Shown piece after piece: positions 7,501 through 64,000 of a stretch of 64,000 nt of DNA; the first letter of the stretch is position 1; each line of letters starts with the position of its first letter. Under the pieces are notes generated by a model, which worked only from the letters and a program-made list of their open reading frames with translations, was not told where the DNA came from and made no database searches. The stretch is from the NCBI RefSeq assembly GCF_053078305.1, contig NZ_CP166879.1; one strand, given 5' to 3'. Both the position numbers and the translations under genes were made by a program.

Positions 7501-8843
7501 TGCACGCGTTTTGAGGTATTGCCTTTGTTATCGTAGGCAACCGCAGAAATCGCATAATAATTGTCTTTGCCTGGACGATAAGCCGGGAGCGTTACTTGCC
7601 ACTGACTACCCTGACCGGTAATTTTGCCACCTTCAGCCAGTAATGACGGCGCTTCCCACTGCACATTTTTCAGTCCGTGAGTTGCTTTGCTGACCACAAG
7701 CCCCAGGGAAAGTGTCTGACCGCCCTTACCTTCAATACGCTCAGGCAGAGCAATACGGATCACTTCAGATTTGCGGTACTCAAGAACGATGTTGTTATTA
7801 CGCTCAACCAGGTCATAGCGGCTGCCTGCCAGTACCCGACGCTCGCGAATGCTATCCGTATCGAGTTGTTTCGCCAAAGGTTCGCCAATTCGGTAGTTAA
7901 CTTCCAGGCCAAAGCGAGTGTCATTCTCACCGCTCTTGCCCTGCTTATGCCCGGCGCTCAGTGTCAGAAGAGGCACTGGCGTGTAATTCACTTCAGCGGT
8001 AATCGCATGTGGATCTTTCTGGCGTTTATCTTTACCAAACAGCCCGACTTCATCGCCATAATACTGTTCATACATCAGGCTTGCGCCAAGCTGCGGCCAG
8101 GCAGGTAAATAGCCCTCTGCGCGGATATCCCAACCATTCGCCGGGCGTTCCTGATAATCCTCAATATCCGGCGATTTTTTCCAGCCAGAAGCCCGAATAT
8201 AACCATTGGCGCTCAGTTTCAGATAATCGCGCCAGTATTCCGCACCAACACCAATGCGGGTATGACTACGGGATAAATCATGGTCGATAAAGGTGTTCAC
8301 CCCCGCCATCCAGTCATTTCCTGAAAAATGACGCCAGCCAAAACCAATATTTGACTGAGTACGATCGTCTGTACGATGTATTGCCCCCTGAGTGAACAAC
8401 ATATTTGTCGGCGTATCATAAATCGGATAAAGCATTTCCAGCGAAGAATCCTTCAGCGAGAAATCTTTATCGACATTCAGTTTGACGCGCGCTGTACCAT
8501 ATTTCCCGAGCCACTCCTGTATTTCCTGGTTAGCTTTAGCGGTGGCCATTCCGGTAATAAAATTACGTGTCGCATCGCTATCTGGCTGACTGCTTAAAAA
8601 TGTCCCGGCATTTGCGGCAAACGACGCGACATTTTTCTCCACGTTATTATCAGCAGTTACCGTAGTATTTCCCATGCTCAACCGTGGCTGAACCGCATGC
8701 TGCGCACGTGCCGCCATTACTGGGGTAAAGGTGACAGCGAGTGGAAAAAGAACCTGAACAGAGATATTTGCCCACGCCACGCAGCGGGCCAGAACTGAAT
8801 AACGAAATCGTGGTTGTTTATGACCTGTTTTATAACGTGACAT
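4590..8843 (-). CDS. eaeH: intimin/invasin-family inverse autotransporter adhesin with repeated Ig-like (Big) domains
   Basis: 1417 aa; N-terminal beta-barrel inverse-autotransporter region followed by many ~90-aa Big-type repeats; position between ykgA and the ykgM region. Confidence 0.85.
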   Translation of the reverse strand: MSRYKTGHKQPRFRYSVLARCVAWANISVQVLFPLAVTFTPVMAARAQHAVQPRLSMGNTTVTADNNVEKNVASFAANAGTFLSSQPDSDATRNFITGMATAKANQEIQEWLGKYGTARVKLNVDKDFSLKDSSLEMLYPIYDTPTNMLFTQGAIHRTDDRTQSNIGFGWRHFSGNDWMAGVNTFIDHDLSRSHTRIGVGAEYWRDYLKLSANGYIRASGWKKSPDIEDYQERPANGWDIRAEGYLPAWPQLGASLMYEQYYGDEVGLFGKDKRQKDPHAITAEVNYTPVPLLTLSAGHKQGKSGENDTRFGLEVNYRIGEPLAKQLDTDSIRERRVLAGSRYDLVERNNNIVLEYRKSEVIRIALPERIEGKGGQTLSLGLVVSKATHGLKNVQWEAPSLLAEGGKITGQGSQWQVTLPAYRPGKDNYYAISAVAYDNKGNTSKRVQTEVVITGAGMSADRTALTLDGQSRIQMLANGNEQKPLVLSLRDAEGQPVTGMKDQIKTELTFKPAGNIVTRSLKATKSQAKPTLGEFTETEAGVYQSVFTTGTQSGEATITVSVDGMSKTVTAELRATMMDVANSTLSANEPSGDVVADGQQAYTLTLTAVDSEGNPVTGEASRLRFVPQDTNGVTVGAISEIEPGVYSATVSSTRAGNVVVRAFSEQYQLGTLQQTLKFVAGPLDAAHSSITLNPDKPVVGGTVTAIWTVKDAYDNPVTSLTPEAPSLAGAAAVGSTASGWTNNGDGTWTAQITLGSTAGELEVMPKLNGQDAAANAAKVTVVADALSSNQSKVSVAEDHVKAGESTTVTLVAKDAHGNAISGLALSASLTGTASEGATVSSWTEKGNGSYVATLTTGGKTGELRVMPLFNGQPAATEAAQLTVIAGEMSSANSTLVADNKAPTVKTTTELTFTVKDAYGNPVTGLKPDAPVFSGAASTGSERPSAGNWTEKGNGVYVATLTLGSAAGQLSVMPRVNGQNAVAQPLVLNVAGDASQAEIRDMTVKVNNQLANGQSTNQITLTVVDSYGNPLQGQEVTLTLPQGVTSKTGNTVTTNAAGKVDIELMSTVAGEHNISASVNGAQKTVTVKFNADASTGQANLQVDTAAQKVANGKDAFTLTANVEDKNGNPVPGSLVTFNLPRGVKPLTGDNVWVKANDEGKAELQVVSVTAGTYEITASAGNSQPSDTQTITFVADKATATVSGIEVMGNYALADGKAKQTYKVTVTDANNNLVKDSDVTLTASPASLNLEPNGTATTNEQGQAIFTATTTVAATYTLTAQVSQTNGQVSTKTAESKFVADDKNAVLTASSDMQSLVADGKSTAKLEVTLMSANNPVGGNMWVDIQTPEGVTEKDYQFLPSKNDHFVSGKITRTFSTSKPGVYTFTFNALTYGGYEMKPVTVTITAVDADTAKGEEAMN

Positions 8844-52234: not shown

Positions 52235-52543
52235 ACATGTATTCCCGGTGAAAAAAAGACAAAACCCCGCGCACCGGAAAGGTGGCGGGGGACTCACGGA
52301 GATAATATATGTCTGAAATTATTTTGATTGTATGGTGTCATGAGATAGCTGAAACCGAGCTATGGATATGCAAATAATAACCTACAGTTTCCGGTTTGAG
52401 GATCGATGAAATCGTTGATTAATGTTAATATACCGCCAATTTTTCAGCGTTCTGATTCTTTCAGTGAATCAACGTATTGGGCTTCCCTGATAGCTGAACG
52501 CTTTAACTTACAATGCTCAGAATTGATAAGAAAAAAGGAATAT

Positions 52544-54667
52544 ATGTCCAGGCTGACTGATTTAATAGCTAAAGCGAAGGCCAAAGACCCACAGTTGGGC
52601 GCTGACCTGGATCGAGAAATCAAGATCCTATCATCACGACTTCCCTTTGGTCTTAATTTCGAACGACATAGCCCTGAAGTTGTCGAGTTGCCATTGCGGC
52701 CTATTCGAAAGGGAGACAAGGTTCGCGTTCTGCCGGAGCGTGGCTCCCCTAAGAAAGGCGATCAGCGGCTATGGCAGGTGAAAGCCATCAACAAGGCGAA
52801 AAAAAACGCTGATATCGAATTGCTGGATACAGTTGTTGTCGAGACTCAGACTGTAGCGCTGAACGATCTTGTCGTTATAGCTGAATTTCGTGACACCATC
52901 TGGCCAGGTCTGGTCAGTACGGGAAAAGTACAGCGCGGTGGTGATAAGCCTTTTCACTCGGTCATTAATGGCGAAAACTATCATGTGCTGAAAGCATTGA
53001 CCTACACGCATAGAGGCAAGGTGGATGCCATTTATATCGATCCTCCGTATAACTCGGGAGCTAAAGACTGGAAATACAATAACGATTACGTTGAGAAGGA
53101 CGATTTATATCGCCACAGTAAATGGTTGGCCTTTATGGAACGCCGCTTGTTGGTAGCTAAAGAGTTACTAAATCCTGCCGACTCAGTTCTCATCATCGCT
53201 ATTGATGAGAAAGAATATTTACGACTTGGGCTATTACTCGAACAAGTGTTCCCAGAGGCCAGTATTGAGATGGTAACGTCTGTGGTAAATCCCCGTGGTC
53301 GTCATCGCCCTGGAAGGTTTGCCCGGTCGGACGAATATGTCTTTTTTGTTCTGTTTGGAAAAGCAACAGTTGGACAAGAGTTAGATCCAGACTTTGCCGG
53401 AGGCAGCCAAGTCCCATGGAGGACCCTGAGACGAAGTGACGCTGCGTCGGCACGAGGTAAGCCAAAAGGCGGTACGGCTCAATTTTATCCGATCTACGTA
53501 AACAGCAATGGAGAAATTGAAGAAATAGGTACACCACTACCGCATGGAATTCCACGTAATACAGTCCAAGAGCGTGAAAATTGTGTTGCAGTATTTCCAA
53601 TACGCGACTCAGGACTTGAAATGAACTGGGGATTAACCTCTTCAGCTCTTAAGGCAATCCACGCTAAAGGCTATGTACGCGTTGGTCGCAGCACGCCTAA
53701 TAAGCCACAAAAATGGGAAATATCATATCTGACATCTGGCAAAATAGATGATATAGAGAGCGGGCGTGCAACTATTGTTGGGCATAATTCTGATGGAAGT
53801 GTTAAAGCGGAATACATTGCGGATAAGTTGAAAACGCCAACCTCAACGTGGATGAGAATCTCTCACAATGCAGAAACAGGTGGAACAAATCTGCTGAAAG
53901 CTCTGTTGCCTGATCGCCGATTTCCTTTCCCAAAATCACTGTATGCAGTTGAAGATGCACTCCGTTTTTTTATTTCAGCAAAAAAAAATGCTGTAGTAGT
54001 AGATTTCTTCAGTGGCTCAGGAACAACCGCCCATGCAGTCATGCGTCTGAACAAACAGGATGGTGGTCGCCGCCAGTGCATCTCCATCACGAACAATGAA
54101 GTCGCTGCCAGCGAACAAAAACAGTTGCGTGAACAGGGGTTACGCCCCGGAGATCCCGAATGGGAAAAATGGGGGATCTGTGATTACATCACAAAGCCGC
54201 GTGTACAGGCAGCTATAACAGGCAAGACACCTGAAGGAGAACCGATTGATGGCGACTATAAGTTTATCGACGAGTTCCCAATGTCTAAAGGCTTTGAGGA
54301 AAACGCTGAATTCTTTACCCTGACTTACGAAGCTGAAAAATCGGTTAGCCATAACCTTGCCTATGCGCGCATTGCGCCGTTACTGTGGTTACGTGCGGGT
54401 GCTCGTGGCAAATGTATTGACAGACTGCCTGCTGAAGGATGGGCGGTGGCTGATACTTATGGCCTGCTATCGGCTGTGGATCAGGCCACGCCTTTCATTG
54501 AAGCCATTAGCCATGCCAGTGACGTACGGGTGGCCTTTATCGTCACTGACGATGACCGCCACTTTCAAGCTGTCACGAGGCGTCTGCCAAAAGGTGTTGA
54601 ACCGGTACGTTTGTACGAATCGTATCTGACCAATTTCAGCTTTACCAATGGGGAATGGACAGAATGA
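52544..54667 (+). CDS. mod: Type III restriction-modification Mod subunit (beta-class N6-adenine DNA methyltransferase)
   Basis: ORF 52406..54667; AGGA RBS before ATG at 52544; motif IV DPPYN precedes motif I FFSGSGTT (beta order); flanking blocks resemble EcoP15I-type Mod as recalled from memory. Confidence 0.8.
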   Translation: MSRLTDLIAKAKAKDPQLGADLDREIKILSSRLPFGLNFERHSPEVVELPLRPIRKGDKVRVLPERGSPKKGDQRLWQVKAINKAKKNADIELLDTVVVETQTVALNDLVVIAEFRDTIWPGLVSTGKVQRGGDKPFHSVINGENYHVLKALTYTHRGKVDAIYIDPPYNSGAKDWKYNNDYVEKDDLYRHSKWLAFMERRLLVAKELLNPADSVLIIAIDEKEYLRLGLLLEQVFPEASIEMVTSVVNPRGRHRPGRFARSDEYVFFVLFGKATVGQELDPDFAGGSQVPWRTLRRSDAASARGKPKGGTAQFYPIYVNSNGEIEEIGTPLPHGIPRNTVQERENCVAVFPIRDSGLEMNWGLTSSALKAIHAKGYVRVGRSTPNKPQKWEISYLTSGKIDDIESGRATIVGHNSDGSVKAEYIADKLKTPTSTWMRISHNAETGGTNLLKALLPDRRFPFPKSLYAVEDALRFFISAKKNAVVVDFFSGSGTTAHAVMRLNKQDGGRRQCISITNNEVAASEQKQLREQGLRPGDPEWEKWGICDYITKPRVQAAITGKTPEGEPIDGDYKFIDEFPMSKGFEENAEFFTLTYEAEKSVSHNLAYARIAPLLWLRAGARGKCIDRLPAEGWAVADTYGLLSAVDQATPFIEAISHASDVRVAFIVTDDDRHFQAVTRRLPKGVEPVRLYESYLTNFSFTNGEWTE

Positions 54668-57237
54668 AATTTACTCTCAAAGGTTATCAGCGCGATGCTG
54701 TACATGATGCTCTGGCAAATCTCAGGAAGGCTCGCCGTTACTGGCATAACGAGAGCGACAAAAGCGCCTTCTCTTTAACTGCTGTAACCGGTGCAGGTAA
54801 GACCGTCATGGCTGCTGCTGTATTTGAAGCATTATTTCATGGCGACGATGAATTTAATTTCGATGCAGATCCCGGTGCGGTAGTGATCTGGTTTAGTGAC
54901 GACCCTGCACTGAACGAGCAAACCCGCTTTCGCTTGATGGAAGCGAGTGACCGTATCAACTACAACGATATGGTGGTAGTTGAACATCCCTTCAGTCGGC
55001 GTAAGTTCCAGGCCGGAAAAATCTATTTTCTTAACACGCAGAAGTTTGGCAAGAATAGTCTGTTAGTACGCGGATTCGATGATAAAGGCGGGCTTTTCGA
55101 GGCAACCCCTGATGCACAGGCTTATACACTGTGGGATACCATCCAGAATACCATCGAAGACCCAGATCTGACTCTCTATCTAGTACTGGACGAAGCGCAC
55201 AGGGGGATGGGGTCGTCAACGCCTTCCGGTGAAGTTGCTAAGAGTACTATTGTGCAACGTCTAATCAATGGTTCGGCTGGAGTGAAAGGTATTCCAGTAG
55301 TGTGGGGTATTTCTGCCACAGTTGAACGTTTCGACAATGCCATTGCCAATGCCGGTCATCATGTCAAACTGCCGAACGTGGTGGTTGACTCAGCTAAAGT
55401 GCAGGAATCGGGACTTATCAAGGACGATATCATTCTGGGTGTGCCTGATGAAGCTGGTGACTTCGATACAGTGTGGGTACGCCGTGCTGCCGACAAACTC
55501 AGGGAAGCGAGCGATGCCTGGGCTGAGTACGCAAGGCAGCAGGAAACCGTACACGAAGTAGTGCCTCTGATGGTATTCCAGGTTCCCAATATGCCAGATC
55601 CGAACGAGGTCGGACACTGGCTGGATACGTTATTCTCCCGTTATCCTGAATTGCCCATTGACAGTGTTGCTCATGTCTTCGGTGAACACACCACACAACG
55701 TTTCGGCCGACATCAGGTGCCTTATATTGAACCGCAGCGGGTGCAGGAATCAACTTGGGTGCGCGTATTGATTGCTAAAGATGCTATCAGCACTGGCTGG
55801 GATTGCCCACGTGCCGAAGTAATGGTTTCCTTCCGTGCAGCCAGCGACAGGACGCATATTACGCAATTGTTGGGGCGTATGGTACGTACTCCATTGGCGA
55901 GACGTATTCCGGGTAATGAGCGTTTAAACTCTGTAGAATGCCTATTGCCCAAGTTTAATACCAATACCGTGAGAGATGTCGTCAATACCTTGTTTAAGGG
56001 CGATGATACCTCTCCTCCAAGTGGACGCATCCTGGTTAACCCTGTGGAGATGAAACCTAACCCGGCTGCTTCAGCTGAAGTATGGGAAGCATTTGAAGCG
56101 CTACCTTCGCAAACCCGCCCACAGAAAGGAGCCAGACCCGCCAGACGTCTGACCGCGCTGGCACAAGAACTGGTTGATGACGGAATTCTTGATGGGGCAG
56201 TCAGGAAAGCCCATGCTGCGTTGCACGCGGTCTTGGACAAATACCAGACAGAAAATGCCGAGAAAATCAAAAACAAACGCAATGCAGTGCTCGTCGTAGA
56301 TGGTAAGGCCTTGGTTGCCAGCCTAAAGAACAAAGCTATGACCTTCAACGAATTCTGGGAAGAGGCGGATGTAGCGGTGATTGATGACGCATACCGGCGT
56401 GCAGCCCGAATCTTCAGCCCAGATGTTTCACGTACCTATGTCGAATATCTGGCCGATAAGGTTGCGGATAGAGAAGATGATGCTGAGGAATATCTGGAAG
56501 CAATCATGGAAGCTCGTGTGACCGTTGCTGGTTTGGGGCTAGTGATGGAGGTGCAGGATTACTTCGATGCTGAAGCCGATAAACTGACGAAGGCGTGGTT
56601 GGTCGTGTACACACCACAGATCAAGTCTTTGAAAGATGAGCGTAAAGAGGCTTACCGTCAAATCGTCGAAATGAGTACCAAACCGCAGGATGTGGATCTG
56701 GTCAGGCCAGAGAACAAGTTTGAAATGACCAGTGTGCGTGAAGGTGAGAAGGAAACTAACCTTCCAGTCTGGAAACACCATTTGTTGTGTGACAAAAGTG
56801 GGAACTATCCGGCTCAGTTTAACCATTGGGAAACCAAGGTTTTTGAGATCGAAACCAAACGTGAAGGATTTGCTTTCTGGTATCGTAATCCACAGTACAC
56901 AGGGCAATCGTCACTGGGAATCGCCTATGTTGAAGCCGAACAGTACAAAATTGTTCGTCCCGATTTCCTGTTCTTTGCCGAACAGGATGGTAAAATGGTT
57001 GTGGATCTTGTAGATCCTCATGGCCTACATTTGGCTGATGCTTTGCCCAAACTGAAAGGAATTGCTTTATATGCCGAACAGCATTCTGATGCTTACAGGC
57101 GAATTGAATCTGTCGCCGAAGTAAAGGGGAAATTACGAGTGTTAGATTTGAAACGGCAGGATGTACAGGATGCTGTTGCTAACGCTGAAAATGCAGAAAC
57201 GTTATTTAGTAGCGGACTTGCTAATGACTACCTGTAA
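54655..57237 (+). CDS. res: Type III restriction enzyme Res subunit (SF2 helicase plus C-terminal nuclease-like region)
   Basis: 860 aa; Walker A TGAGKT, DEAH box LVLDEAH, motif VI QLLGRMVRT; overlaps mod stop by 13 nt; C-terminal region has candidate D...ExK nuclease residues (VFEIETK). Confidence 0.7.
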   Translation: MDRMKFTLKGYQRDAVHDALANLRKARRYWHNESDKSAFSLTAVTGAGKTVMAAAVFEALFHGDDEFNFDADPGAVVIWFSDDPALNEQTRFRLMEASDRINYNDMVVVEHPFSRRKFQAGKIYFLNTQKFGKNSLLVRGFDDKGGLFEATPDAQAYTLWDTIQNTIEDPDLTLYLVLDEAHRGMGSSTPSGEVAKSTIVQRLINGSAGVKGIPVVWGISATVERFDNAIANAGHHVKLPNVVVDSAKVQESGLIKDDIILGVPDEAGDFDTVWVRRAADKLREASDAWAEYARQQETVHEVVPLMVFQVPNMPDPNEVGHWLDTLFSRYPELPIDSVAHVFGEHTTQRFGRHQVPYIEPQRVQESTWVRVLIAKDAISTGWDCPRAEVMVSFRAASDRTHITQLLGRMVRTPLARRIPGNERLNSVECLLPKFNTNTVRDVVNTLFKGDDTSPPSGRILVNPVEMKPNPAASAEVWEAFEALPSQTRPQKGARPARRLTALAQELVDDGILDGAVRKAHAALHAVLDKYQTENAEKIKNKRNAVLVVDGKALVASLKNKAMTFNEFWEEADVAVIDDAYRRAARIFSPDVSRTYVEYLADKVADREDDAEEYLEAIMEARVTVAGLGLVMEVQDYFDAEADKLTKAWLVVYTPQIKSLKDERKEAYRQIVEMSTKPQDVDLVRPENKFEMTSVREGEKETNLPVWKHHLLCDKSGNYPAQFNHWETKVFEIETKREGFAFWYRNPQYTGQSSLGIAYVEAEQYKIVRPDFLFFAEQDGKMVVDLVDPHGLHLADALPKLKGIALYAEQHSDAYRRIESVAEVKGKLRVLDLKRQDVQDAVANAENAETLFSSGLANDYL

Positions 57238-57549
57238 TCTATAGAAATTGCGTAACGAAACTGCATTTCAAATTGGTTGAGACAATCTAACTCTGAGTAT
57301 TGGAGCTTCTCTGTAAGAAGGTCCAATACTTACAAGTCTATTTGGTGACCACAGCCACTATAACTTAAAGCAGTTTAGCAGCTTGTTAACTAAAGAGTTT
57401 TATTGTTTCTTCAACCTGGAATTGCGGAATCCCCTCTTTCGTACAATTAATGATAGGATGTGTCAATATAGTAACTTTTGCAACTTCACCCGAAGTTTTT
57501 TGTAAAATATACTGACCTATTATATGTCACAAAATATGTGATGTGAGGA

Positions 57550-58344
57550 ATGATGAACAGTAACCTGACCAAAATATGTTATCAAGGTGAGACCGGAGAA
57601 AGTGATTTAAGAACGTTGATGCTTGGTGATATTTTATATATCTCATTGCGAGACGTTTTAGTGACACTGAATAAAGAAAATAGAGAAATAAATGCTGATT
57701 ACACAGTAAAATCAATGGCGGGAATAATCAGAGCACAATTACAGGTTCTTGATCCTGACGAGTATATCACGACTGATGCTGAACACAGTGTTTTTGAAGG
57801 TCAAAAAGAGATCTTCGTCACCCAGCCTGGTTTGTATCGAGTCATGTCAAGTGACCGAAGTGCTGCTGGTAAGCGCTTTCAAAAATGGCTATTTCATGAA
57901 GTCATACCATCATTGACTAAACATGGAGTATACCCACCTCCGCCAGAGGCTAAAGGATCAGTTTTAGCTCAAATGGCTGAAATACTTGCACAAAATTCGC
58001 GAGCACTTGCTGACGCAATCCATAAACACGAAAAATTGGCAGAAGATGTCTCACAGGTTAAAGGTAAGGTTGCCGACGTTGAAAGCCGCTTGGAACTGTT
58101 AGAATCAGGTCCTTCCACTATAACTGAAGATATGAAATCCCTTGATGAACGACTTGTTTTCTTGGATATGAGAATGGAGGAAAAGCATTTCACCGAGACA
58201 TTAGCCTGGTGCGAAAATATTTCAGTTCAAAAAAGCAGGAAAGTGATTCGCAAGAATTGTAGAGAGAATTCACTCTTTACTATACAGACTATCGACGAGG
58301 CGATAGCCATCATGACTGAAAGTGGAAAAATAACACAAAATTAA
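57550..58344 (+). CDS. BRO-N domain protein (prophage antirepressor-like) with C-terminal coiled coil
   Basis: 264 aa; BRO-N hallmark QPGLYRVMSSDRSAAGKRFQKWLFHEVIPSLTKHG; heptad-rich C-terminus. Confidence 0.7.
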   Translation: MMNSNLTKICYQGETGESDLRTLMLGDILYISLRDVLVTLNKENREINADYTVKSMAGIIRAQLQVLDPDEYITTDAEHSVFEGQKEIFVTQPGLYRVMSSDRSAAGKRFQKWLFHEVIPSLTKHGVYPPPPEAKGSVLAQMAEILAQNSRALADAIHKHEKLAEDVSQVKGKVADVESRLELLESGPSTITEDMKSLDERLVFLDMRMEEKHFTETLAWCENISVQKSRKVIRKNCRENSLFTIQTIDEAIAIMTESGKITQN

Positions 58345-58685
58345 AGAGTTAGGGGCATGTTATCTGCTGGTTATATTATTGAACGCTGACGTGACACAGG
58401 CTTTTCCGCAAAGAGAAGGCCTATCCAGAGGGTTACTTACGGCTACAACCGAAGTTACGCTCCCTTTTCGTAAATTTTAGTGTCAAGTTTGGTCAGATGC
58501 GTATTCCGAACAAACTGCGATCGATTCAGGTGCCATTTTGCAACAACTACTGAGTTTGCCCAACCAACTCAGATAAAATGTCAGCAACGTTATTAAAGGA
58601 TATTTACCAGGGCAAAGAAATCGTCGTAAAATTATTCAACAAATAATTTTACTGTACTTGCTCAATTTGCAGAAGGAAAATCAGG

Positions 58686-59003
58686 ATGACCAAACCATCA
58701 ACTATAGCCGGAACAGCAGGCGCTTTGGCAACTGCCGGTACTGCAGCCTCAACAGCATCAACCGTTGCAGGTGCATCAGCTGCAACAATTATGTCAGCGA
58801 CAGCAGGAACAACAGGAGCAGCTCTGGCTTCCGTTGCAGGCGCATCCGGTACAGCAGGCGCAGCAGCAATTTCATCAGGTATGGCAGCGATTGGTTCCAC
58901 TGTTGGTGGTGGGATGGCTGCCGGTGCGGTAATTACTGCAGCAGCGCCTGTTGCGATTAGTGCAGCCGTCATTTATGGGCTGGTTAAAATATTCAAAGAT
59001 TAA
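58686..59003 (+). CDS. small Ala/Gly/Thr-rich protein (105 aa) with hydrophobic C-terminal segment; function unknown
   Basis: AAGGA RBS 8 nt upstream of ATG; strong GCx codon periodicity; sequence ...GGGMAAGAVITAAAPVAISAAVIYGLVKIFKD. Confidence 0.45.
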   Translation: MTKPSTIAGTAGALATAGTAASTASTVAGASAATIMSATAGTTGAALASVAGASGTAGAAAISSGMAAIGSTVGGGMAAGAVITAAAPVAISAAVIYGLVKIFKD

Positions 59004-59610
59004 TTGCAGGGGCTTCGTACAGAAACCAGTCGCACCTCCTGACGGTTCCGAAAGCTCGACTGGCAGAGTTGCTGCCTCTTGAGGGATTTACCTTCTCCGG
59101 GTGAGTGATATCTGCCGTCAGGTGTTCGTGCAGCGGGCCATAACCTGCAGTCGGGAGTTGAACGCCTGACGACAGGAAATCAGCCAGGCCAGTCACCACG
59201 CAGGCTGACAACAGGTCAGAACCTGAATCAGCCGGCAGCCATTCCCGTGGTCAGTACTTCGCGGCCTGACACGATCACCAGACTCAGTCCTTCAGAACCA
59301 GACTCCAGTACCTGCCTGGCGGTCGCCCCGGCGCAACAGAATAAATCAACCATCGTCAGACGGCGATCGTTTATATGCCAACGACGTGCCCGAAAAATGC
59401 GTCAATATGAGTTCCCCGGATGCTTACGTTGGTTGCAAAAAATGTAATTTACAATGTGTGTGGATAATTTTAATAGTTTGATTAATATCGTGCGTTAGTT
59501 AAATCAATAACGGGCTAACTACTGTAAAGAGGTTAGTCCGTGTTTTTATTGTAAGCATGACTATTTTTTATTTATTTGTATTAGTCGCGACTTGCTCTGA
59601 CGTATGACTT

Positions 59611-60048
59611 TTAAAGACTATCGTCGTAGGGTGCTTCAGTCAGAATCTTTTGAATTTCATGTCGTGCTTTTAGCTCCCATGAAAGATTCATATTTGCCAT
59701 TAACTCAATAAATTTTGGAAACGCGATACGTCGTCCATCTCTGCCTTCCACCCTGTGTTCTAACTCATATTGAAATGCTATCTTATAAGCGAGTTCTGAC
59801 ATGATCCAATAAAGTAGCTCATCTAGCGAACTAGTTACCTTCCGCGAGAATTCATAACCTCTTTCTGAATGAATGTAATTATATACATTGTTTTCAAATG
59901 TAACATATGGTGTGCCATCACCAATTGGAGCAGAACAAAGATTAACTGAATATCTTGAGAGACCAGCTTTCAAAGTCAATGCGTCAATTTTTTTTTGTAT
60001 TTCATTGATATTCAACAACATGTTAGCGAACCTCACGAATATATCCAT
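59611..60048 (-). CDS. cdiI: CdiI-type immunity protein cognate to the CdiA C-terminal toxin
   Basis: 145-aa ORF immediately downstream of, and overlapping, the cdiA stop; low-GC relative to cdiA body; alternative start 60021 one nt after cdiA stop. Confidence 0.6.
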
Positions 60049-63000
60049 TCTTTAATAGCCATTCCACATTCACTCGTTCTTGCATATTAGGTAATATTTG
60101 AATCCCCCCTCCAGGCTCACCAAAAGCGGGGGCAATCTTTCCTTGTATAGCAGGCAATGGTTTTATTACCTCATATTCATAGTATTTTTCAGCTTTAGTT
60201 CCTGGCGCTAGAGCTCGTTGTTCGTAAGGAGTACCTTTAGGAGCAAGGAAAGAGCCAGTAGGCTCACCATATCTATCTAGGCGTGTGCCTACCGGAATTA
60301 TAGTTTTGATTGGATCACCTTCAAACCCCAAATTCTTGGGCCAATCCCACCCACCATTAGCATTCTTGAATTTGTCGTAGTAAGAATAGCCTCCGGCTTC
60401 AGCATCTGTAATTGCACTTGAAGAGTTAGGGTTTTTAGATACGCTTTCTTTAACGATACCTTGGCCTAATACACTGATTTTATTAGCTGCCGCAGCACCT
60501 AACACTGGCGTCATTGATGCCGCTACAGTCTTCATCCCGTCATAGGTTTCGACGTAGCTTTCAGCCGTCGCTTTATCCACACCGAACTGCGTCATAGCAT
60601 AGTTTACCATTGCATCTTTCACCTGCTGCTGATTTTGTGCATCAACACTGGTGATATTCAGCAGGTTTACTATCTGCCCGTAAGCATCCGGATACATATC
60701 GCTGACTTGGTTATTGTAGTTTCCGGTTTCATAACCTCCTTTAGCAGCAATAACCCTCAGTCTTTCACCGGCACAAGCCACGCTGGCTGCCTGTCCATTA
60801 CTGCATGCAGCGATTACCGCCTTATCACTGCTGATATCTTTTTCAAGCAATGCATCATATTTCTGCTGCGCCTTTTCGCGCTCTGCCGGATCTTTACTGT
60901 TTTTAAGCGTCTGTTTTGCTATCTCAAGCTCTGTCTTTTCAGACACGCTAAGATAATTATTCTCAACCGAGTTCCTGCCTGCCTGTGCCCCCGTACCGGC
61001 AGCACTTGTACTGTTGCCGGCAAGCCCGCCCGCAATACCCGAGGCAATGGTGGCCAGCATGCTGATTTGCTGACGTTCCTGTTCACTCAGGCTATCGGTA
61101 CGACCACCATAGTAGTTATCAATGATATACCGGGCTGCAAGTTCACCGCTGAATGCCCCTGCAGCACCGGAAGCCGCATTGTTTCCGCCCAGTTGTGCGG
61201 CAAGCGCTCCCCAGACTGCGTGAGCCATCAGGTTTGCTTCCCGGTTATCGCCTGTGGCCTGTTTTATAAGCTGTGCCACTGCCGGATTCAGACCGCCAGC
61301 CAGTACCTGCCCCGGATTCCCTGCATTCAGTCCGCCCAGCACGCCCGTGATGGCCTGTACCACCATCTGCGGCGTACTGCCCGTACCGTAGCCTTTCATG
61401 ACCTCTCTGTATTCCGGGGTCTCCCGCAACTGTGCATCGCTCATGCCAGGATGCTCTTTCCTGGCTGCTTTCATCGCTTCAGTTTCGCCATACGTCATGA
61501 CGATGTTACTCATCTGACCGCTAATCTGGCTGATAACCTGCGCTTCCTGCAGACGCTTCTGCTCTTTCTCCCTGTCAAATATCGGTGCAATGCTGCCGTT
61601 GGCGTTTTCCGGGTCCCGGCTGAGCCCGGCAATATCCTGCTTCTGACTCTCATTATCACGGATAATGAGATTTCCGCCGCTGATGGCGGATGACGTGGTA
61701 CCTTCAGCATGTCCACTGCTGCCGGACATACCGGTAAGTGCGTTCGCCGCACCGGCTATTGCATTTGAGGCCACCATCTGGCTGGCTGACATCCCTGAGC
61801 CACCCGATAAACTGATTCCGGTATGGCTGGCTTTATAGTCTGCCTGGTTATGGATATCCGACCAGCCCAGCGTGTTGGTATTGAGGCTGTTTTTGTCATC
61901 CGTTGCCGTGGACGCAATTACCGCACCATTGAGCTGAGTGTGATTCCCAACAGTGACATCAAACCCGTCTTTTCCGGCGTAGATACCACTCTGTTCCCGG
62001 ACAGAATCGTAATTGCTTTTAATTTTGTCCTGACTGATGCTGGCATAGCCGCTGCCGGACATTGAGCCAAACGTGAAGCTTCCACCTGCAGCCACGCTGT
62101 TCTGTCTGCTGTCGTAACGGTCGCTGTCCTGAAGGCTCGAAATGGTCAGGTTATTCCCCACATCCGCTGTGACTTTCTCACCACTGACCTGAGCCCCCGA
62201 CAGGGTGGTATCATGTCCGCTTGTGAGGGAGACATTTTTACCCGCATCCAGCATGGTTTCGGTCCAGGTCGTGCCGTTGCCTTTCTCCCTGCCCTCTGAA
62301 CCATTGATACCGGCGAAGATACTGAGGCCTCCGCCATTGGTTCCACCACCAAAGCTGACGCCCACGCCGCCACCTTTGCTGCTGTTCTTCCCGGTTGTCT
62401 GTCGGGTGTCAGCGGCGGCAGCCAGCAGAATATCGTTCTGTGCATTCAGGCTGGTGTCATTGCCGGACTTAATCTGGCTCCCGGTAATGAGAATATCGCC
62501 GCTGTTGTTATGGTCCTTATTTTTCCCCGTGGCAGTGACGGAGACATTGTTACCGGCGCTGAGGGTTGAGCCGGAGACGATATCGTGCTGATATTTCGTC
62601 TCAGACTTCGACTGCTGATGGTTGAGCGAAATGCTCACGCCGATACCATTATTCGGGTCAGCACTCTGTTGCTGCAATCCGTGGTTAACACTGGCCTGTA
62701 CACCGGACAGAACCGCCTGTGTTCCTTTCAGTGCCGCCAGACGGCTGTCGCTGGTTTCTTTCGCCTCCCGGGCCATGGTGGCAGCATTATTGATGGCACT
62801 GCCCACCGTGCCGGAAAGGGCAACCGTCAGCCCGCTTTTCTTCTGCTCAAATTTTTCGTCCACAGTACGACGGTCATGCCCCGGGTCAACCACCACACTG
62901 TCACCGGTAATGCTGATATCACGGTTCGCAATCACATCCGAACCGCTGATATGAGCCTGTTTGCCCGCGGTAATACTGACATTACCGGCAGTGGAGCCGA

Positions 63001-64000
63001 TGGTACTGGCACTCTGACTCTGCGTTGTCCCGGCCTCACGGCGGTCGTGCGTTGTCTTACTGCTGCCAGTGGTGAAACCAATACCACCGGTACCCATCAG
63101 ACCGGATTTCTTCGTTTCCTTAAAGCGCCAGGACGTATCTGTACTGGTGGCAGCAAGAACATCAACATGGTTACCCGCCGCCAGTGACACATCCCGGTCA
63201 GCCACCACATCCGAACCCTCTACCGTCAGGTTATTACCGGCGTTAACGGTCACGCGGTTTCCCGACAACAGGGAGCCCTTCTCACGGGTGACGCTGTCTT
63301 CCGTGATGGTCCGGGTGGTCTGATGGCTGAGGAGACGGTTACGGGTTTCCCCTGATTCACTGTAGTGATAATCACTTTCCGTGGCAGTACCCAGTACGAT
63401 GTCATGACCGGCATTCACACGGATATCGCCCTTTGCCGTTACAGCGGTCGCAACTGAGGTGATATCCCGTCCGGCAGTAACCGTGATGTCACCGCCACTG
63501 GTCATGTCTGTTCCCTGCTGCCGGACCGAATCATGAACCGTCTTCATGCTGAAAGTGCTGTCGTGGTCACCTGTGCCTGTGGACTCCGCAGCCATGTTCA
63601 CATCCCGTCCGGCGCGGATATCCATACTGTTTTCAGCCATAATACCGGCAGCCTGGCTGTTCACATCACGACCGGCGGAAAGCATCAGACTGTTCCCGGC
63701 AGTGACCGTGGGGGCCACGGCATGAGTTTCATACCACCCGGACCCGCCATAGCGACGACGTTCTCCGGCCTGTATCGCGTTCATGTTCAGGTCATTACCG
63801 GCGGACAGTAACACGCTGTCACCGGCAGAAACGGCGGCACCGGTGATACTGATATCCCCGGCTGCGCCCATAAACAGTGAGTCCGTTGCCCTGACAGCAG
63901 CCAGCGGACCGGTATCCGTTCCGCTGAAATGGTTATATCCGTTGTTCATCGCCCACTGTTCTGTACGGGTGAGGTTACTGATGTTTCCGGTGGCGCTTTC
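60023..64000 (-). CDS. cdiA: CdiA contact-dependent inhibition exoprotein, 3' portion (FHA repeats, pretoxin VENN, C-terminal toxin); 5' end beyond window
   Basis: ORF open to window edge; filamentous-haemagglutinin-type repeats; VENN motif (NSVENNYLS) ~313 aa before C-terminus; C-terminal ~110 aa resemble TNT-type domain. Confidence 0.85.

Follow-up and report, generated by a model that had tools for sequence, protein, structure and literature searches.

BnzA, the TerB protein of the experimentally validated Bunzi anti-phage system, is depicted with two predicted transmembrane helices (bioRxiv 10.1101/2022.05.11.491447). Here we describe a gene at positions 58686..59003 (+ strand, stop codon included) of a 64,000-nucleotide stretch of contig NZ_CP166879.1, hereafter the window, that encodes a 105-residue Ala/Gly-rich protein and represents an unannotated variety of the small hairpin membrane proteins already known in association with conflict systems. 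The protein resembles BnzA, and the PDC-M09A model of the defence-system collection PADLOC, in that relatives with the same helical hairpin match both models, and the window family aligns with these relatives. In contrast to Bunzi, the window protein has no TerB or other Pfam domain, lacks a BnzB-like partner and does not match the BnzA model at E ≤ 1; set beside BnzA it comprises only the hairpin and two further weakly hydrophobic helices.

Other described proteins invite comparison. Similar to the pinholin S21 of phage 21 and to phage signal-anchor-release (SAR) segments, the window protein is small, and its basic residues precede charge-free, weakly hydrophobic helices with a high content of Gly, Ala, Ser and Thr; a more hydrophobic helix bearing a glycine-zipper pattern comes next, and a short charged tail closes the C-terminus. 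It differs from S21, however, in having four helices instead of two, and displays neither sequence similarity to the pinholin nor a match to a PHROG holin model; furthermore, its prophage copies are located in the nin region and not, as holin genes are, beside an endolysin. The Pfam glycine-zipper families (PF13488, PF13441, PF13436 and PF05433) and the class II microcins have a Gly/Ala-rich, uncharged composition in common with the window protein, but the protein matches none of these Pfam models at E ≤ 1 and lacks a lipoprotein or outer-membrane signal. Eukaryotic LRAT/PLAAT (H-RAS-like suppressor) enzymes consist of a catalytic domain and a C-terminal membrane anchor, and are thus tail-anchored. 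Bacterial proteins in which an LRAT domain is fused to the hairpin described here mirror this arrangement, whereas the window protein contains no LRAT domain, and in place of a single generic helix the bacterial proteins are anchored by a conserved Gly-rich hairpin, which is often duplicated.

Annotation misses most small membrane proteins, and this 'hypothetical' one is the product of a real, selected gene. Its hairpin, a previously unnamed module, links a stand-alone cargo gene of mobile elements with LRAT-like enzymes and XRE regulators, and with the membrane segment of the validated BnzA and of several PADLOC candidates.

A protein-coding gene under purifying selection

The window copy is intact and full length, and its product is identical to WP_000165753.1, which the Prokaryotic Genome Annotation Pipeline (PGAP) calls 'hypothetical protein' in RefSeq and in the same frame of identical E. 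coli loci; the protein bears the label 'hypothetical' wherever any source names it. The coding sequence, which begins with ATG, is supported by the list of open reading frames (ORFs), the RefSeq annotation and the homologues. A first-pass annotation of this DNA, made from the letters alone, had described a product that is about 70% Ala, Gly, Thr and Ser, and the translation is exactly the one it quoted. A contributes 32%, G 15%, T 13% and S 10.5%, giving a combined value of 71.4%. The only charged residues are K3, K101, K104 and D105. The strong ribosome-binding site reported there was read again as a Shine-Dalgarno-like AAGGA 8 nt 5' of the ATG (58673..58677, + strand), and the C-terminal hydrophobic helix is evident in the Kyte-Doolittle profile, whose 19-residue mean exceeds 1.6 only at about residues 79-100.

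The gene is overlapped by a 107-residue antisense ORF (58649..58972, - strand), a 100-residue ORF in the +2 frame (58658..58960, + strand) and, in the ORF list, a 55-residue ORF (58765..58932, + strand). It could be argued that the 105-residue ORF is non-functional here, being either a consequence of composition or a decaying remnant, or that the antisense ORF specifies the true product. Three ORFs do overlap through GCN codon periodicity, PGAP annotates the minus strand in a short E. coli variant, many E. coli copies are truncated and the scar of an IS66 element abuts the gene. The reading frames were compared across 15 homologues from different genera, using the ratio of non-synonymous to synonymous change (pN/pS), the number of stops and the mean BLOSUM62 score of replacements. 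The annotated + frame was the best on every measure, with a pN of 0.185, a near-saturated pS of 0.697, a pN/pS of 0.27, zero stops and a mean BLOSUM62 of +0.30, whereas four other frames returned pN/pS values of 1.35-1.93 and many stops. The 100-residue ORF in the +2 frame had a pN/pS of 1.6 and was interrupted in 12 of the 15 homologues, the Vibrio copy containing three stops and the Cetobacterium copy one. The antisense -1 frame appears mostly open and constrained (ratio 0.33) because GCN reversed is NGC, such that its third position coincides with the sense wobble; it nevertheless gave a mean BLOSUM62 of -0.51, carried a stop in 10 of the 15 homologues and has no conserved start.

Conservation of the gene as a unit points in the same direction. 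Homologues display 57-83% identity although the GC content of the gene spans 43% to 69%, and a length of 100-111 residues, a start region of the form M-x-x-x-[VI]-K-x-S-T and the ending ...YGLFKLFED are conserved across genera. The first-pass annotation had named a fragment of a larger low-complexity gene as the finding that would undo its proposal, and the conserved length, start and stop dispose of that scenario. As these features extend across phyla and the window copy is complete and matches WP_000165753.1 exactly, the view that the ORF is non-functional or misassigned in strand is highly improbable. These data show that 58686-59003 is a protein-coding gene under purifying selection and that the overlapping ORFs are by-products of composition and GCN periodicity, in agreement with the single true frame proposed at the outset. 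It is very probably a genuine membrane-protein gene of a new family.

The VGGGM hairpin and its larger relatives

A search of 5.8 billion proteins identified 38 relatives, including proteins from Thermomonas fusca, Vibrio splendidus, Cetobacterium and Escherichia albertii, and a scan of one genome per species added Sulfurovum, Lacimicrobium, Colwellia, Aliidiomarina, Ferrimonas, Xenorhabdus, Acinetobacter, Herbaspirillum, Massilia, Oleispira and Photobacterium. The gene occurs in few species (about 20 of 100,044), scattered unevenly among phyla, a distribution typical of horizontally moving cargo. When 1.84 billion cluster representatives were searched exhaustively with HMMER and the family profile, 328 of them (50% cluster level) had E ≤ 1e-3, of which 46 reached E ≤ 1e-10. 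The part common to the 328 is the C-terminal ~60-75 residues (AGLSAAGITSGLAAIGSVVGGGMAAGvvvTAAAPvAvgaaGYGlYKwlkd), and residues 64-101 of the window protein conform to the hairpin pattern S-G-[LM]-A-x-[IV]-G-x-x-[VI]-G-G-G-M-x-x-G ... A-A-P ... Y-G-x-[FY]-K. Judged by this shared segment, the window protein belongs to an unannotated superfamily, defined here as the 'VGGGM hairpin'.

The AlphaFold2 (AF2) model comprises four helices (residues 4-26, 31-50, 57-73 and 77-104), with a predicted local distance difference test (pLDDT) score of 54.6 when 22 sequences were supplied and 63.6 with 85 sequences. The last two helices, joined by a GGG turn, form the hairpin, for which block pLDDT values were 71-88 with the 85-sequence alignment. 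This conserved helix/GGG-turn/helix unit (SSGMAAIGSTVGGGMAAGAVITAAAPVA...YGLVKIF, residues 57-104; 58854..58997, + strand) is common to the superfamily according to AF2, the alignment and hhalign. Across the 85 sequences G70, G76 and G80 are invariant, and S64, A67, G74, G75, M77, P88 and G98 nearly so. The sequence and the alignment reveal a glycine-zipper pattern, G76-x3-G80-x3-T84 (58911..58937, + strand), within VGGGMAAGAVIT; a proline lies mid-helix in the C-terminal hairpin, the N-terminus is basic and the protein ends in the short charged tail KIFKD. The likeness to Gly-zipper peptides suggested by the first-pass annotation is thus retained in the conserved GxxxGxxxT pattern but does not extend to membership of PF13488, as the window protein has no Pfam match at E ≤ 1.

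Larger members of the superfamily (54 proteins) place the hairpin in other settings. N-terminal to it, 24 have an LRAT domain (PF04970), 4 an XRE helix-turn-helix (HTH) and 1 a GYF_2 domain; in the LRAT members the hairpin follows the enzyme domain in one or two copies. A conserved ERxARxAGR motif precedes the C-terminal hairpin of the LRAT-hairpin proteins (locus L026, 5839-6681; P0045, P0067, P0094 and 20 others). In a few superfamily members a hydrophobic segment resembling a signal peptide replaces the first helix. In a separate family of ~177 residues (A4, represented by P0090) the hairpin is followed by a coiled coil. When the window family (A1) was compared with this ~177-residue family by hhalign, residues 46-104 of the window protein aligned with a probability of 98.6% (E 5e-16), whereas the equally Ala/Gly-rich N-terminal half, used as a control, scored 1.3% against the same family. 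The hairpin match is thus unlikely to be purely compositional. An internal duplication relating the N- and C-terminal halves had been suspected by eye; hhalign of one half against the other was blank, and neither this nor the same 1.3% score supports it.

It is through these relatives that the hairpin connects with defence proteins. The PADLOC BnzA model is matched over profile positions ~300-407 by P0110 (E 8.8e-9), P0090 (2.8e-8), P0047 (7.6e-6) and P0116 (3e-3), and in P0047 and P0116, which have the hairpin alone, the match falls at profile positions 306-374, a region that probably corresponds to the two-transmembrane-helix segment of BnzA. P0090 also matches the PADLOC LeoBC model (E 1.9e-4), and in the 600-residue proteins of loci L035 and L040 a PDC-M09A match lies over the hairpin and a PDC-M72B match over the C-terminal domain. 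The ~177-residue family resides in islands with BREX and SEFIR/TIR genes or with GmrSD, Vsr and methyltransferase genes.

Two groups of these larger relatives deserve mention in their own right. At three loci in two organisms (L053, 6001-7819; L054 and L055, 6001-7950) the ~177-residue gene is followed by a gene for a 436-459-residue protein without Pfam domains; since the ~177-residue family matches the PADLOC BnzA, LeoBC and PDC-M09A models, the pair has the look of a candidate two-gene defence system. In L033, L035, L037, L039 and L040, ORFs of 502-674 residues around position 8001 carry the hairpin in the middle. Their C-terminal domain matches PDC-M72B in L035 and L040, the two that were scanned (E 1e-27 in L035), and a GADVQI...EVQLKA motif suggests, by eye, a putative PD-(D/E)xK nuclease.

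Several broader searches of the stand-alone protein returned blanks. Against NCBIfam at E ≤ 1 there was one chance-level line and nothing else, and a search of PDB sequences with the family profile yielded nothing below E 0.87. A tblastn search of phage and plasmid collections with the consensus protein found no match, a result that is uninformative as the low-complexity filter probably masks the query. In the literature, searches on the motif, the accession and glycine zipper plus defence terms found no account of the family, and the DefensePredictor supplements do not contain the protein.

Predicted topology and possible function

On balance, we lean towards the view that the protein is a self-associating inner-membrane hairpin, carried as cargo by mobile elements, that perturbs the membrane or modulates membrane-bound defence proteins. 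This judgement combines high confidence in a real membrane-protein gene of a new family with the considerable doubt that attaches to any specific activity. In the proposed model the protein would insert into the inner membrane as two helical hairpins with both ends in the cytoplasm, an arrangement that fits the cytoplasmic HTH fusions, the abundance of Lys at the N-terminus and the short charged segment at the C-terminus; as an HTH in front of the hairpin must be cytoplasmic, the hairpin would start from that side. Segments of the SAR type are charge-free, weakly hydrophobic and rich in Gly, Ala, Ser and Thr, are preceded by 2-3 basic residues and are often missed by hydropathy methods (PMC9239132). 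Helices 1-3, too weakly hydrophobic for ordinary spans, would resemble such phage segments, whose hold in the membrane depends on the proton-motive force. The small-residue faces would mediate association of the protein with itself or with related hairpins. One outcome could be a small pinholin-like leak or pore, leading to exclusion or abortive infection; the other, modulation of membrane-anchored defence proteins that bear a homologous hairpin. Either would benefit the mobile element that carries the gene.

A bolder version of this proposal is that the 105 residues constitute a complete single-gene conflict factor, either a pore sensitive to the proton-motive force that aborts or excludes phage, or an anti-defence mimic of the transmembrane hairpin of BnzA-like, PDC-M09A-like or LRAT-fused proteins that mixes into their assemblies to switch them off. 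We regard this as improbable. Should the stand-alone form act alone, it would rank with the smallest factors of defence or anti-defence and would offer a simple handle on the membrane parts of systems such as Bunzi.

It should be emphasized that a body of observations weighs against the membrane-active conflict protein proposed above. The window protein has no match in PADLOC at E ≤ 1 and none in PHROG, and the Pfam and NCBIfam blanks count in the same direction, as does a Foldseek comparison of the AF2 model with the PDB, which returned 0 matches. Confidence in that model is low for residues 1-56, where pLDDT is near 50. Only a single segment is hydrophobic enough for a membrane span, and the protein could be tail-anchored, with one span and a long soluble or disordered N-terminal region. 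The putative link between the window protein and BnzA is transitive and draws on about 60 low-complexity residues. The copies in lambdoid prophages lie outside the lysis cassette, the sigma-70 promoter-like site upstream of the gene is no better than chance (3 such sites found versus 1.7 expected) and the gene comes without an antitoxin or regulator, which sits uneasily with a pore of constitutive toxicity. Finally, although 149 of 5,426 complete E. coli genomes contain a match, only 35 keep most of the gene, defined as at least 80% of the query covered.

The fate of the gene in the remaining E. coli genomes is instructive. About 63 contain an internally deleted copy that has also lost the start and stop codons, and many other copies consist of the first 150 nt only, ending at the debris of insertion sequences. 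With few genomes keeping the gene and the rest retaining a deletion or a stub, selection is weak in E. coli, where the gene is dispensable and often decayed.

This decay is among the points that favour a passive small membrane protein, serving as an anchor, scaffold or envelope-stress helper without a pore-forming, toxic or conflict-related role, and hitch-hiking on mobile DNA. In the fusions the hairpin looks like a plain membrane anchor, an Enterobacter plasmid places the gene in an apparent operon with those for two other small proteins, and the antitoxin expected of a toxic protein does not accompany it. Plain anchors, however, do not keep invariant G, M and P motifs across phyla, and purifying selection on the gene is strong. 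Moreover, the gene recurs in the accessory regions of prophages, on plasmids and in defence islands, which speaks for a function of advantage to mobile elements. A passive role therefore seems rather unlikely; if it were correct, the present work would provide a useful family definition and little more.

Genomic neighbourhoods and the mobile unit

The stand-alone gene has spread patchily by horizontal transfer and is present in prophages, on plasmids, in integrase-bounded islands and beside restriction-modification or CRISPR loci. In E. coli and E. albertii it lies straight after hsdR of a type I system, or after a type III-like methyltransferase/helicase pair and a BRO-N gene. In Acinetobacter rathckeae it is beside a type I restriction system; in Thermomonas it adjoins integrase, Card1 and RAMP genes, and in Cetobacterium CRISPR-Cas. 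The Vibrio copy is the last gene of an integrative element, adjoining a short ChlI/Mg-chelatase-family gene that is probably a truncated comM. Neighbours in other genomes include a MobA relaxase, a conflict-type histidine kinase and type VI secretion VRR-NUC/TsiV arrays, the island that houses a variant family also encodes an integrase, an AAA protein, DUF87 and a PLD-like protein, and a homologue occurs on six viral contigs.

In the lambdoid prophage of L042 the gene is in the nin region, between O/Ren-like and DinI/NinB/RusA/Q genes, a placement presumably shared by the near-identical L043-L046. Long intergenic gaps lie on either side and a strong terminator-like hairpin 3' of the gene; the prophage copy is apparently its own transcription unit. 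A LexA-box-like palindrome (TACTGTATAAAAACACAGTA, about 8596-8615 of L042) lies just upstream of the DinI-like gene that is 3' of the homologue. A DNA search found one plasmid, the 8.2-kb ColE1-type CP056477.1 of Enterobacter cloacae (L048), with a homologue of 79% nucleotide identity. Three small genes in a row (L048 6787-7806), encoding a Zn-ribbon and TM2 protein ('NINE protein'), a 105-residue Gly-rich protein and the homologue, may form a small membrane-protein operon. The Gly-rich neighbour has split Zn-ribbon ends around its core. A sub-threshold PF13488 match belongs to a neighbouring protein on the plasmid and not to the window protein.

All-against-all BLAST of the neighbouring genes detected no conserved partner, the recurring genes being the lineage-restricted hsdR, integrases and a ~420-residue Alteromonadales gene. 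In four Alteromonadales genomes a divergent protein (~20% identity) of 405-461 residues, without a Pfam or NCBIfam match, has its gene in divergent orientation immediately 5' of the small gene, on the - strand of the loci read (L015 16-1278, L018 6699-7916, L019 6200-7585 and L024 6243-7583). Two Ferrimonas loci have a 67-residue ORF between this gene and the small gene; a HicA identity, suggested by eye for small upstream ORFs in Ferrimonas and Thioploca, was not supported by Pfam.

In the window itself, the gene is located between a BRO-N gene (57550..58344; PF02498, E 2.7e-7) and the Imm63 immunity gene cdiI (59611..60048, - strand; PF15599, E 2.3e-30), as the first-pass annotation had stated. 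Beyond cdiI lies cdiA (60023..63949, - strand); in an identical locus its C-terminal part has the PGAP label TNT domain. This juxtaposition with a contact-dependent inhibition (CDI) locus raises the question of whether the gene is an orphan ionophore toxin fragment of CdiA-CT or an extra immunity gene, the more so as a putative glycine zipper is present in CDI ionophore toxins (PMC11630599). Its architecture argues otherwise: the gene is on the strand opposite cdiA and cdiI, has its own start and ribosome-binding site and contains no VENN motif. Most homologues, furthermore, are far from CDI genes, and the 150 best profile matches are all ≤ 601 residues, so none of them is a CdiA. With strand, architecture and distribution all opposed, the CDI idea was discarded and is the remotest of those considered here.

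The same competition locus, the Gly/Ala/Ser-rich uncharged composition typical of class II microcins, the presence of one copy on a small ColE1-type plasmid and a ...V(A/V)GG sequence about 13 residues from the start of several homologues could together suggest an exported microcin- or bacteriocin-like peptide that kills competitors, a likeness that the first-pass annotation had drawn while remarking that no double-glycine leader was evident. Its remark on the leader stands, for the window protein has MTKPSTIAGTAGAL at its N-terminus and no GG before residues 74-75; in the homologues the VAGG/VVGG at about position 13 lacks the leader consensus. The microcin reading itself finds no support. 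No bacteriocin or microcin model was matched at E ≤ 1, and the neighbourhoods read or scanned contained no C39 peptidase or C39 ABC exporter, HlyD-type protein or immunity gene. The association with cdi is not conserved, and the occurrence of the same segment C-terminal to cytoplasmic HTH and LRAT domains fits an intracellular membrane module better than an exported peptide. A secreted peptide is thus very unlikely.

Upstream of the gene, a leader of 145 nt (58542..58685, + strand) is transferred together with the ORF among E. coli contexts. It starts straight after the hsdR stop in other strains, and in those E. coli loci that have the gene behind hsdR the similarity begins at 58542 or 58561. 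Inside the leader is the sigma-70 promoter-like site (58603..58632, + strand; TTTACC/TTACCA, a 17-18 nt spacer and TAAAAT; 9 of 12 matches). It also contains a 22-residue upstream ORF, MSATLLKDIYQGKEIVVKLFNK (58578..58646, + strand), which in E. coli E200139 and E. albertii lacks its stop, PGAP there calling a 141-residue fusion. The leader and upstream ORF are conserved, and the protein is small, hydrophobic, borne on mobile DNA and unaccompanied by a protein partner. These features would be in keeping with a type I-like toxin-antitoxin or addiction module in which this protein is the toxin, an antisense RNA restrains it and the island or plasmid is stabilised. At 105 residues, however, the protein is about twice the usual size of a type I toxin. 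No antisense promoter was identified and no Rfam RNA was found on either strand of 57000-60200, the scan of which returned two chance-level matches only. In addition, intact copies exist alongside many decayed ones, unlike the prediction for an addiction module. We therefore consider a type I toxin hardly likely.

At positions 52406-58344, 5' of the gene, the window encodes a site-specific DNA methyltransferase, an 860-residue DEAD/ResIII helicase and the BRO-N/anti-repressor-like protein, a position that other E. coli strains fill with a type I hsdMSR operon. The helicase displays weak matches to PADLOC type III restriction enzyme models.

Within the gene, two 15-nt direct repeats, both read from the sequence, encode VAGAS at residues 27-31 (58764..58778, + strand) and 50-54 (58833..58847, + strand), the second being the same as the first at 13 of 15 nt. 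They flank exactly the 23-codon in-frame deletion of the E. albertii protein P0009, and further in-frame deletion variants (P0020, P0024, P0030, P0031 and P0038) indicate that length variants arise repeatedly. The 3' end of the gene is abutted by a remnant of an IS66-family tnpC (59048..59420, no strand assigned), which delimits the E. coli unit on its right. This segment is matched by 868 genomes, with tnpC/IS66 features under the match, which explains the ~870 E. coli genomes that match the 3' flank. A 41-residue 'hypothetical protein' that PGAP places within the remnant (59228-59353, - strand) is probably spurious.

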